From assembly GCA_018896395.1 (NCBI GenBank), contig JAHIMN010000105.1, positions 1-26,521 of the forward strand: a stretch of DNA of 26,521 nt, given 5' to 3'. A program made the position numbers and the translations under genes. Source of the DNA: Verrucomicrobiota bacterium. Its GTDB lineage: Bacteria; Verrucomicrobiota; Kiritimatiellia; JAAZAB01. Below, one piece after another: positions 1,947-24,473 of this stretch (within the stretch, counting starts at the first letter, position 1; each line of letters opens with the position of its first letter). The notes under the pieces were generated by a model that was not told the DNA's origin, ran no database searches, and saw nothing but the letters and a program-made list of their open reading frames with translations.

Positions 1947-1974
1947 AATGGTCAATGGTTCATGGTTGATGGCT
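1947..1974. repeat. Solo heptamer array (AATGGTC AATGGTT CATGGTT GATGGCT)
   Basis: Four 7-nt units; 25/28 identical to 22437-22464. Confidence 0.85.
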
Positions 1975-19069: not shown

Positions 19070-19209
19070 AATTCCAAGTTCCAAAATCCAAATTCCAAGG
19101 AATAGTTAAATTCTAATAAACAAAACAAATCCAACGCTTCAATTCGTTTTATTCCTTTTGCTTTAATTGATTGCGTTTCCCTGGAATTTGGAGCTTGGAA
19201 TTTGGAATT
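19070..19209. repeat. Inverted heptamer arrays (AATTCCA x4 / TGGAATT x4) flanking an AT-rich 84-nt core; empty element
   Basis: AATTCCA AGTTCCA AAATCCA AATTCCA (19070-97) and TGGAATT TGGAGCT TGGAATT TGGAATT (19182-209). Confidence 0.9.
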
Positions 19210-19264
19210 TTATGGGTGCGGTCATTTTTGATGTTTTCTTGTTTTTATCCACGGTTCTGAATGG

Positions 19265-21715: not shown

Positions 21716-21799
21716 GTGTGGGAGTATGGGCGTACGGGCGTGTGGGGGTACGGAGAAGACTCTTAACTCCCATACATCCAAACTCCCATACACCCATAC
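21716..21799. repeat. Inverted octamer arrays (GTRYGGGN x5 / NCCCATAC x4) with a 12-nt spacer; empty element
   Basis: GTGTGGGA GTATGGGC GTACGGGC GTGTGGGG GTACGGAG, then TCCCATAC ATCCAAAC TCCCATAC ACCCATAC. Confidence 0.9.
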
Positions 21800-21853: not shown

Positions 21854-22432
21854 TTAATGTTGCCCCGCGGCCAGGTCCAGAAAGTTGCGGAGCAAGTGCT
21901 TGCCGCCCGGCGTCAGGATGGATTCCGGATGAAACTGGACGCCATAGGTGGCGTGCTGGCTGTGGCGCAGGCCCATGATTTCATTGTCCTCAGTGGTGGC
22001 CTCGATCACCAGTTCCGGGGGCAGGCCTGCGCGCATAATGGCCAGGGAATGATACCGCCCGGCCACAAAGGGGTTCTTGAGCCCTTGATACAGCCCTTTG
22101 CCGGTGTGATGGATGAGCGACGTTTTGCCGTGCATAATGGCCTGAGCGCCGGCCACCCGCGCGCCAAAGGCCGCGCCAATAGCCTGGTGGCCCAGACATA
22201 CGCCCAGGATGGGAACAGTGCCGGACAGCCGGCGGATCAACGCCACGGAAATGCCGGCTTTATCGGGCGTGCAGGGGCCGGGCGAAATTACCACGGCCTG
22301 CGGGCGCAAAGTGACCACGGCATCCACCGTGACGGCATCGTTGCGGAATACCTGGATTGAGGCGCCCAAGGTGCCGAGCGCATGCACCAGGTTGTAGGTG
22401 AACGAATCGTAATTATCAATTAGAATAATCAT
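21854..22432 (-). CDS. trpG: Anthranilate synthase component II (glutamine amidotransferase)
   Basis: IDNYDSFTYNL, SPGP, GVCLGHQ, RYHSL, VQFHPES; operon context. Confidence 0.93.
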   Translation of the reverse strand: MIILIDNYDSFTYNLVHALGTLGASIQVFRNDAVTVDAVVTLRPQAVVISPGPCTPDKAGISVALIRRLSGTVPILGVCLGHQAIGAAFGARVAGAQAIMHGKTSLIHHTGKGLYQGLKNPFVAGRYHSLAIMRAGLPPELVIEATTEDNEIMGLRHSQHATYGVQFHPESILTPGGKHLLRNFLDLAAGQH

Positions 22433-22893
22433 GAGGAATGGTCAATGGTTAATGGTTGATGGTCAATGGAAGAAGCTGGCGAAGCGTTCGCGGGTTTGGA
22501 TTTTCCATGTAATTGGATTTTTCGTTCAATGCTTGTAATTAAATTACCCAGCTGATGAAGAGCATCTTCATATCCAGAGAAAAGTGTTTCGTCGCCGGCT
22601 GTCAATAGATGCGTGTCTTTGGCATAGTTAAGATGCATAAATGTTTCACGCGCTTCGCGGCGGCAGCGATGCAAAGATTGTAAATATTCCGTGCTGTATT
22701 GAGAATAAAAGCCCTCGGTCATGTTGGCGCACACCGATTCCGATGCCCTTAATAATTGGCTTCGTAGCCATTTAAAATCGGACCGGAATGGGCGGCTCAT
22801 CGTTTCGATCTTCAACGCCAGTTCATAAAACAAGCGATAAACCGGCATATCTTCAACATTTTCGATGTGTTTCTTTTCCATGCTGCGCCTCAT
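22429..22893 (-). CDS. Four-helix bundle protein (TIGR02436 / 23S rRNA IVS protein family)
   Basis: EDMPVY...SQLLRASESVCANMTEG...EY..L matches the family pattern Q..RA..S...N..EG. Alternative start ATG 22881. Confidence 0.85.
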   Translation of the reverse strand: MRRSMEKKHIENVEDMPVYRLFYELALKIETMSRPFRSDFKWLRSQLLRASESVCANMTEGFYSQYSTEYLQSLHRCRREARETFMHLNYAKDTHLLTAGDETLFSGYEDALHQLGNLITSIERKIQLHGKSKPANASPASSIDHQPLTIDHSS

Positions 22894-22963
22894 CGCTCAT
22901 CACGCATTCTTGTCTCCTCTTTCATCACCCATTGACCATCACCCATTGACCATCAACCATTCT
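22436..22963. mobile_element. Putative cassette: four-helix bundle gene bounded by inverted heptamer arrays (AATGGTY / RACCATT)
   Basis: Left AATGGTC AATGGTT AATGGTT GATGGTC AATGGAA (22437-71); right TCATCAC CCATTGA CCATCAC CCATTGA CCATCAA CCATTCT (22922-63); outer ends GAATGG/CCATTC. Mobility is inferred. Confidence 0.6.
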
Positions 22964-24473
22964 TTAGTTGGAGTCCGTTGGCAGCCAGGGCCACCGCGTT
23001 TTGCATGCCGCGCGCCTTGTGACCGGTCTCCTCAAATTCCTTTTGCGGGTCGGAATTGTAGACGATGCCGGCGCCGGCCTGGATGGCGATGGTGCCGCCG
23101 GCGATTTCCAGGGTGCGGATCGTGATGGCAAAATCCATGCTGCCGTCATAGCTGATTTAGCCCAGCGCGCCGCCGTAGGCTCCGCGTGGTTCGCTCTCCA
23201 GTTCGTGGATGATTTCCATGGCGCGAATTTTGGGCGCGCCCGAGAGTGTGCCGGCGGGAAAAGTGGCGCGGATAACATCGGCGGCATCACAACCCTTGCG
23301 CAGGATGGCTTCCACATGCGAGACAATATGCATGACGTGGCTGTAGCGTTCGATCGTCATGTAGTCGCGCACCTGCACGCTGCCGGTTTCCGCCACGCGC
23401 CCAAGATCGTTACGGCCCAGGTCCACCAGCATGATGTGCTCGGCTTTTTCCTTGTCGTCGGAGAGCAGGTCATCGGCCAGTTGGCGGTCCTGCTGTTCGG
23501 TGGCGCCGCGCGGGCGCGTGCCGGCGATGGGCCGCAGTTCCACGCGGTTGCCCGTGAGCCGCACCATGATTTCCGGCGAAGAGCCCACCAGGGCCTGGTC
23601 GCCGATCTTGAGAAAATACAGGTAGGGCGAGGGGTTCAGCAGGCGCAGGGCGCGGTACAGCTGGAAGGGCGGCACCTCCGAGCGGGCACTGAACCGCTGA
23701 CTCAGGACCGCCTGAATGATATCCCCGGCCACAATGTAATCCTTGGCCTTGCGGACGATTGCCTGGTACTGGGCGCTCGTCATGTTGGAGGTGAACGTCA
23801 CCGGCGGATAGACGCGATTTTCGACGCGCGGCGCCGGTTGTTGGAGGATCGTCTCGATGGCGGCAATTTTCCGGCAGGCGGCCTCATAGACCTCCGTTGG
23901 TGTGGCGGCACTCGCGGGACGCGAGCAGACAATGACCTTGATCGTGTGGCGCAGGTTGTCGAACACGATCAGGTTATCCACTTTCAGGAAGCGGCTGATC
24001 GGCCGGCCCCCGCCACGAACCGGCTTGGGTGCCGGCAGGCGTTCGAACTCGCGGATGGCCTCGTAGCCAATGTAACCCACGGCTCCGCCGAAAAAGCGGG
24101 GCAGACCCGGCATGGTGGCCGCGCGCACGCCCTGGTACACGGGCCGCAGGCGCCGGAGCAATTGCGGGTCCGTGACGCCAGGCTCCGCCGGAGCACTCCC
24201 TGCTCCGCCAGAGCGCTGCGCGGGGGCGAGTCGCCCAGGCGAGTCGGTGTGTTCGATTTCGAACAAAAGCTCGGGCTCGACGCCGATGAAGGAATAGCGG
24301 CCCCAGGTTTCACCGCCCTCGATACTTTCGAGCAGGAACACGTTCGGGTTATCCGCAAAGCGCCGGAGCACGGAAACCGGCGTTTCGAGATCGGCCAGCA
24401 CTTCCTTGCAGACCGGGATCAGGTCATATTCCCTGGCCAGCGCGAGGTAGTCCTGTAGGGTTGTGTGTTGCAT
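22953..24473 (-). pseudogene. trpE: Anthranilate synthase component I with one in-frame TAA at 23157-23159 (nonsense mutation or sequencing error)
   Basis: GRYSFIG, GDIIQAVLS, NPSPY, GSSPE, PIAGT, EHIMLVDLGRND, PAGTLSGAPK. Reading continues in the same frame: YGGALG*ISYDGSMDFAITIRT...QAGAGIV (506 aa if read through). Confidence 0.9.

Follow-up and report, generated by a model that had tools for sequence, protein, structure and literature searches.

What is a small gene for a four-helix-bundle protein, enclosed on both sides by runs of a seven-base repeat, doing between trpE and trpG? The question is raised by a 26,521-nt stretch of DNA (the window) from contig JAHIMN010000105.1 of a Verrucomicrobiota bacterium (GCA_018896395.1), here contig C36 of a 2.0-Mb MAG (label G000) that is 70.7% complete. 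The nearest records to it are MAGs of Kiritimatiellia, and DNA near-identical to the window is present in groundwater metagenomes. The encoded protein belongs to TIGR02436/PF05635, to our knowledge a large and widespread family with solved structures, for which a function is known only in the DGR cousin Avd. As far as we know, two other puzzles, the intervening sequences (IVSs) of 23S rRNA and the surplus of tandem heptamers among bacteria, have lacked an explanation since the 1990s. The answer that we consider probable is that the locus holds an IVS-type selfish cassette, made of two inverted heptamer arrays and one PF05635 gene, which was inserted in the sense orientation at trpE-trpG in an ancestor of part of the genus.

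The gene order on the minus strand is trpE, a 150-codon ORF and trpG. Domain matches identify the upstream host gene, trpE (22953..24473), as anthranilate synthase component I and the downstream host gene, trpG (21854..22432), as a class-I glutamine amidotransferase. The cassette between them is 527 bases long, with one small four-helix-bundle gene inside two mirror-image runs of a 7-base repeat. Read on the gene strand, the 5' arm (22929..22962, minus strand), recognized by repeat search and in the sequence, consists of five tandem heptamers AATGGTY, and the 3' arm (22436..22469, minus strand), recognized by repeat search, of five inverted heptamers CCATYRA. The two arms are 34 nt each, 88% complementary and 459 nt apart, and they form the closing stem in the MFE fold of the whole-element RNA (-169.5 kcal/mol, z = -4.56). 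The cassette ORF is listed as 22429-22893 (minus strand). The ATG at 22881 (MEKKHIENVEDMP) is probably where it truly begins, because homologues begin with MEKK or MGK at this point and an SD-like GAGG, read from the sequence, lies 6 nt upstream (22888..22891, minus strand). The resulting gene (22429..22881, minus strand; 150 aa) is assigned from profile matches, a fold model and dN/dS.

Both ends of the cassette share codons with the host genes. The trpE stop codon, a TGA at 22953..22955 (minus strand) in the sequence and the ORF list, lies within the arm unit AATGGTTGA, and the 5' arm supplies the final two trpE codons (N, G) together with this stop. At the other end, the 3' arm is translated as the tail of the four-helix-bundle protein (..SSIDHQPLTIDHSS), and the stop of the cassette ORF overlaps the trpG start in an ATGA (22429..22432, minus strand) that, from the sequence and its relatives, has no upstream SD. 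The original prediction had described a four-helix-bundle cassette with inverted heptamer ends between trpE and trpG, an upstream array that gives trpE its last codons and TGA, and a downstream array that forms the protein's tail and shares ATGA with the trpG start. Sequence, ORFs and arms confirm this layout at each of these points. Elsewhere in trpE, an in-frame TAA at 23157-23159 (minus strand) stands where seven relatives in the genus have TAC (Tyr), in the conserved segment ..GALGYISYDG... Either a nonsense mutation cuts TrpE short at residue 438 or the TAA is an error of assembly or sequencing, and Logan contigs of the likely source sample break close to it.

The cassette ORF matches TIGR02436 at 54.8 bits (cut-off 24) and PF05635 at 52.2 bits (cut-off 33.8). 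An AlphaFold model (pLDDT 87) places helices at residues 13-28, 34-58, 63-89 and 98-125, and models residues 126-150, the part encoded by the 3' arm, as a disordered tail. In a fold search the closest structure was XCC0516 (2GSC; TM 0.90-0.92 by target, rmsd 1.0 A), with a further match to BT_0352 (2RLD). Next came DGR Avd, as 4DWL and the 8UB* RNPs, at TM 0.7-0.8 (0.77-0.83 for 4DWL); the structural relationship to Avd that had been claimed for the family is thus borne out. The family profile found 2RLD at 1e-21 and 2GSC at 1e-16 in the PDB, where a single-protein phmmer search with the cassette protein gave no match. The RxxxSxxxNxxE motif described in PMC3936711, which also notes PF05635 genes in cas loci, is present, and its residues R45, S49, N53 and E56 show little or no variation in two alignments (A1, of seven paralogues, and A2). 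PADLOC returned no match to the cassette protein. Among the four orthologues at the trp site, dN/dS is 0.07-0.17 at a dS of 0.3-0.8, which indicates that the protein is under purifying selection and is maintained. The five chains in 2RLD and 2GSC and the text of PMC4990558 suggest, by analogy, that the cassette protein would form a homopentameric ring.

The trpE-trpG junction was compared in nine species of the genus in order to place the cassette among its relatives. The whole cassette is present in G000, G008, G009 and G006. In G005 only the 3' array remains, fused to TrpE (..GHQPLTINHSS*) and abutted by a vestige of the 5' arm, and in G002 there are two 3' units only. In G003, G004 and G001 the junction consists of about 20 nt with 1-2 heptamer-like units and a GGAG before trpG. 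The comparison of junctions in relatives that the original prediction had proposed therefore yields four filled species and five that are empty or reduced. The SD-less junction CCATTCCTCATG of the filled species is also found in G002 and G005, which suggests that the gene was lost in these two. Contigs with an SD-type empty junction are also found in the same groundwater samples, in relatives that are about 90% identical. Insertion polymorphism within one population was not seen among these DNA contigs, as those that skip the cassette all come from the ~90% identical relatives. For the genus, the locus tree has poor resolution, and grouping all four filled species in one clade is borderline rejected (p-AU 0.045).

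The same series shows how translation is arranged around the insert. TrpE ends in ..LQLKNG* here as compared to ..LQLEN* and ..QIENH* in empty relatives, the normal ending being ..LQLE(N/D). In both G000 and G009, the ATGA shared with trpG closes the cassette ORF, and in G008 and G006 the ORF stops 17-27 nt earlier, within the array. It had been proposed that trpG has no SD of its own and hence depends on the inserted gene. The absence of an SD stands, as neither GGAG nor GAGG occurs within 20 nt before the trpG ATG in the window. However, the dependence on the inserted gene does not, since the cassette-free G002 and G005 share the SD-less junction; coupling of trpG is a trait of the lineage and not of the insert. 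In one RNA run (X19), reads fell on trpG and trpE of a ~90% identical relative only, with no depth on the cassette.

A second junction, thrS-infC, gives a comparable picture. No array is present there in G002, G003, G004, G007 and G009. In G000 (C211:1634-1817, L103), both ATGG arms surround the first 30 codons of a gene of the same subfamily. In G008 and G005 the arms, or one unit of the 5' arm, remain with the last ~20 codons (..ERKIKLHGKSKP..), and in G006 there are two units only. It thus appears that one element family entered both junctions in this genus and was eroded in different ways. At the G000 locus, ThrS too ends in ..NG* within AATGGTTGA, and infC retains an AGGAGG and an ATT start right behind the arm. 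No target-site duplication or flanking direct repeat was found at trpE-trpG or thrS-infC. The empty forms of both junctions carry one or two arm-unit-like sequences at the right junction, which may reflect homology-guided insertion or arrays growing in place. The two junctions show that arms and gene are passed on, and lost, as one.

The MAG itself contains further copies of this design. Nine of its 11 TIGR02436 matches sit inside inverted tandem heptamer arrays, which are built from seven different heptamers, and each protein subfamily has its own arm heptamer in inverted orientation. The arm unit is AATGGTY for the window cassette on C36, GTTCTTN for the paralogue on C79, GGTTCAN for those on C217 and C223, GCAGAAT for those on C61 and C156, CAGAGGT for C73, CGAACAT for C182 and TTCCAAR for C6. 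The copies on C61 and C156 are 90% identical over 375 nt although they occupy different loci, and their homology stops at the arm end. Tandem arrays of period 7 number 163 in the MAG as compared to 4-11 for periods 5, 6, 8 and 9, making them some 15-40 times commoner. The total is 377 heptamer arrays in 2 Mb. A majority of these (257, or 68%) belong to unit families matched by a resident gene's arms, and among the unit families that form inverted pairs, all but two small ones have such a gene. The inner length of the inverted pairs is bimodal, being 9-175 nt in pairs without a gene and 364-444 nt in pairs with one. About three quarters of the arrays in the MAG lie outside strict pairs, and solo arrays are common. 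Some 15 near-uniform AAATTCC hairpins without a gene have subterminal sequence in common with the full C6 copy, which is the pattern of deletion derivatives from a master element.

Several repeats of this general kind were seen near the cassette or in its array family. Within the trp operon, the trpF/trpB junction (window 19072-19210) holds an AAATTCC inverted-heptamer hairpin with an 89-nt AT-rich core and no gene, and the trpG/trpD junction (window 21716-21799) holds a pair of inverted period-8 arrays (GTATGGGN), also without a gene. The operon thus has three repeat-armed elements in all. An octamer array similar to the GTATGGGN pair occurs on C195. A solo array of four AATGGTY units, of the family of the cassette arms, lies at window 1948-1972, and there are 38 such arrays in the MAG. 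A GC-rich palindrome of about 28 nt (the CCGATCCGCGCGTAAGCGCGCAGATCGG type) often abuts AATGGTY arrays on many contigs (C15, C91, C103, C221 and C265), and another hairpin (TTCCGCCGAAGGCGGATCCGCC..) recurs near AATGGTY arrays and CCGATCCGCGCGTAAGCGCGCAGATCGG-type palindromes.

Loci with the same design were then sought in other genomes, with the single cassette protein as query. The scan yielded 30 same-subfamily loci (55-91% identity), and the subfamily has ATGG-core arms in at least six phyla (Kiritimatiellia, Verrucomicrobia, Lentisphaerae, Nitrospirota, Marinimicrobia and Armatimonadota). Of the 27 loci analysed, 25 have two or more in-register NNNATGG units upstream, and all 27 have CCATNNN units downstream. 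Beside the subfamily genes there are 4-15 in-register ATGG units as compared to 0.02 per 154-nt background window. The consensus of the arm unit is T(T/G)(A/G)ATGG in every phylum, so the arm core has stayed with the protein over distances at which neutral DNA would be randomized. Most phyla have, in the protein tree, a single clade for each insertion site, as with Nitrospira, where the site is before uvrC. The verrucomicrobial copies are polyphyletic, with two or more positions in the tree, one of which is next to Marinimicrobia. This topology fits rare transfers followed by vertical descent. One cassette (L052), from a record labelled uncultured Nitrosospira (CMX), nests within the Nitrospira clade together with its position before uvrC, and the record name is probably wrong. 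Another, with GTACAAA arms, lies between two tRNA genes in an armatimonadotal genome (L074, G043), in a transcript that is heavily processed like rRNA.

The association of gene and arms was also assessed against sham positions. Across all subfamilies in five other genomes and this MAG, 34 of 38 genes exceeded the 95th percentile of sham positions for flanking inverted repeats (p = 1e-18), a sample biased in that the genomes were reached via an armed copy. The arms in these 38 genes have an identity of 0.65 at period 7 as compared to 0.25 at other periods. In a sample unselected for arms, which took the best match from each of 27 genomes drawn evenly across the phylum, 23 of the 27 genes were armed relative to sham positions (p = 1e-12; related genomes in this sample are not independent). 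The two proportions apply to this phylum and to the five genomes. Inverted arrays in the flanks of homologues, another check proposed by the original prediction, are accordingly present at 9 of 11 matches in this genome, in about 25 of 27 loci across phyla and in 23 of 27 genes of the unselected sample. Cassettes are also fitted closely to their host units. In 48 of 53 cassettes the upstream neighbour has the same orientation, and the gaps from host-gene ends or starts to the arms are mostly -10 to +35 nt. The count of '++' neighbours in this set, 39 of 53, is a lower bound because the longest-ORF caller mislabels some GC-rich flanks, including the trpE of the window.

These sham comparisons bear directly on the simplest alternative, that slippage-prone, generic intergenic heptamers are everywhere and the gene merely came to lie between two of them. 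The sheer abundance of arrays in the 2-Mb MAG speaks for such a juxtaposition. However, the flanks of each gene are of one unit type and inverted, real and sham positions differ sharply in both samples, and gene and arm core are conserved jointly across phyla; chance is hardly credible as the explanation. A host regulatory system deserves more weight but is still unlikely. According to this reading, the paralogues would be sequence-specific regulators with the matching operon-junction arrays as their regulon, polarity, stability or translation would be controlled at those arrays, and the gene between its own sites would be autoregulated. The match of array families to resident genes, the purifying selection on the gene and the behaviour of the arrays as conserved units, of which about three quarters are unpaired by strict standards, would all suit a regulator, and curators of Geobacter genomes took paired tandem hepta- and octamers as sites of global regulators (PMC2700814). 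Yet at two junctions within the genus, gene and arms come and go together, leaving remnants of either end, and the same unit of gene plus arms is found at unrelated junctions in six phyla. Copies are also found broken, with an in-frame TAG in C73, an ATA replacing the start codon in C223 and truncation in L067-L069, and 20 of 61 genomes of the phylum have no match to the family at all.

A purely RNA-level IVS is the remaining alternative, and we regard it as quite improbable. Here the arms would form a stem cut by RNase III, either freeing a monocistronic mRNA or fragmenting the operon transcript, and the protein would have no part in the arms. The 34-bp stem in the MFE fold, the precedent of Coxiella and Leptospira and the orientation of the cassette along host transcription are in its favour, as is the presence of RNase III in the genus: the gene occurs in 9 of 9 other genomes, and the failure to find it in this MAG carries no weight at 70.7% completeness. 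Two properties of the arms were used to look for selection on pairing. Across 56 cassettes, 75 arm mismatches would be G.U pairs in sense RNA as compared to 77 in antisense, so there is no bias toward wobble pairs on the sense strand. Complementarity between arms was not increased over shuffled unit order (mean z 0.37, 0 of 25 significant), a comparison of low power because there are few units per array; no unit-by-unit compensation is seen. Together these results argue against a selected RNA stem and lend no direct support to processing of the cassette by RNase III. Solo arrays are common, cleavage would leave trpG with neither leader nor SD, and the arm core is conserved across phyla with the subfamily, which a stem alone does not need. 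The negative stem tests, the unpaired arrays and the cross-phylum core favour arrays of a recognized unit, and the hairpin would be a consequence of the inverted layout of those arrays. The earlier description is corrected on this point: in both stem tests the arms behave as arrays of conserved units rather than as a selected stem. Cutting by RNase III is possible by analogy with the Coxiella IVS.

The selfish cassette is thus the preferred reading, and its earlier form, in which the gene is the cargo of a repeat-bounded element, is supported by the filled and empty junctions and by the armed homologues. Several traits of MITEs and transposons are found: terminal inverted repeats, multi-copy homology that ends at the repeat, and both filled and empty sites. 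The cassette encodes no transposase, recombinase or nuclease; its sole ORF is the four-helix-bundle protein. Movement is rare, with single sites vertically inherited within clades. Mobility via a reverse transcriptase (RT) was considered and found no support, the one RT recovered from the MAG being a group II intron reverse transcriptase/maturase on another contig (C51:4231-5568, L102; TIGR04416, 346 bits). An AATGGTY-type array lies about 1.2 kb upstream of that maturase.

Short elements bounded by inverted repeats are known from other bacteria: the Correia/NEMIS elements of Neisseria and the ERIC elements of enterobacteria are MITEs that form hairpins inside operon transcripts. The cassette resembles them as a short, presumably co-transcribed gene-junction element of which many copies lack a gene and few are full. 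It differs in that its arms are tandem heptamers, its 'master' encodes a four-helix-bundle protein and not a transposase, and no target duplication is present. The DGR accessory protein Avd (4DWL; DGR RNP 8UBE) has the same four-helix-bundle fold, and its pentamer binds both RT and RNA; PF05635 is treated as a homologue of Avd, and PF05635 genes have been noted in DGRs (PMC10053308). Unlike a DGR, the cassette gene has no adjacent RT, template repeat or variable repeat, and no RT is present in the window. Paired tandem hepta- and octanucleotides listed as putative regulator sites in Geobacter (PMC2700814) and the heptamer repeats of bacterial genomes (PMC4692102) are similar to the arms as intergenic runs of 3-5 tandem 7-8-mers, often in opposite-strand pairs at variable distance. 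They were taken as regulator sites or G-quadruplex repeats, with no link to PF05635.

The closest published thing is the 23S rRNA IVS of Coxiella burnetii and Leptospira. In Coxiella, an S23p ORF is enclosed by a 28-bp terminal stem, RNase III cuts out the IVS, and there are 3-4 tandem GACAGAT units whose number varies by strain (PMC4990558). The trp cassette shares with these IVSs the placement of a PF05635 ORF in the loop, inverted repeats at the termini with a stem of about 30 bp, tandem arm heptamers of variable copy number and the sense orientation in a highly transcribed host unit. In contrast to the rRNA IVSs, which lie in helix 45, it is located at a junction of protein genes, trpE|trpG, and its arms interlock with host stop and start codons. 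Purifying selection acts on its ORF; that of Coxiella is in decay and seems not to be translated. Excision by RNase III, demonstrated for the Coxiella IVS, would be a candidate process for the cassette. The element is best classed among ORF-bearing IVSs, as a non-rRNA variant that is mobile over evolutionary time. A literature search found no paper linking the PF05635 family to heptamer-armed operon-junction cassettes. The window contributes the series of filled, empty and remnant sites in one genus, the arm-sharing copies in one genome and the negative stem tests.

The layout suggests how such an insert could live inside an operon. The cassette probably has no promoter of its own and would be expressed by read-through of the host operon, with its left arm terminating trpE. 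Ribosomes translating the cassette ORF would pass through the right arm, opening the 34-bp stem, and be handed on to trpG at the ATGA, so that the operon would keep working. The arms are most likely rows of putative binding sites for the cassette's own Avd-like protein, a pentamer by analogy. This protein is the candidate reader, given its pentameric solved relatives and the binding of RT and RNA by its cousin Avd. From the arrangement would follow a long hairpin, either in RNA or in single-stranded DNA, and with it a possible RNase III substrate as in the 23S IVSs. We put forward more tentatively, as a possibility and no firmer than that, a wider proposal: that PF05635 pentamers read their own heptamers, with one code per subfamily, and that a transposase-less class of elements seeded the 23S IVSs and much of the heptamer excess.

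The trp locus ties together the PF05635 family, the 23S rRNA IVSs and the heptamer excess of bacterial genomes. Two junctions with filled, empty, solo-array and remnant states, together with conserved ATGG arms, make a protein-repeat code and a new route of gene mobility testable. For the bacterium, the cassette would be an insert tolerated in an essential biosynthetic operon with little harm, as it supplies the stop of one gene and would pass ribosomes to the next.
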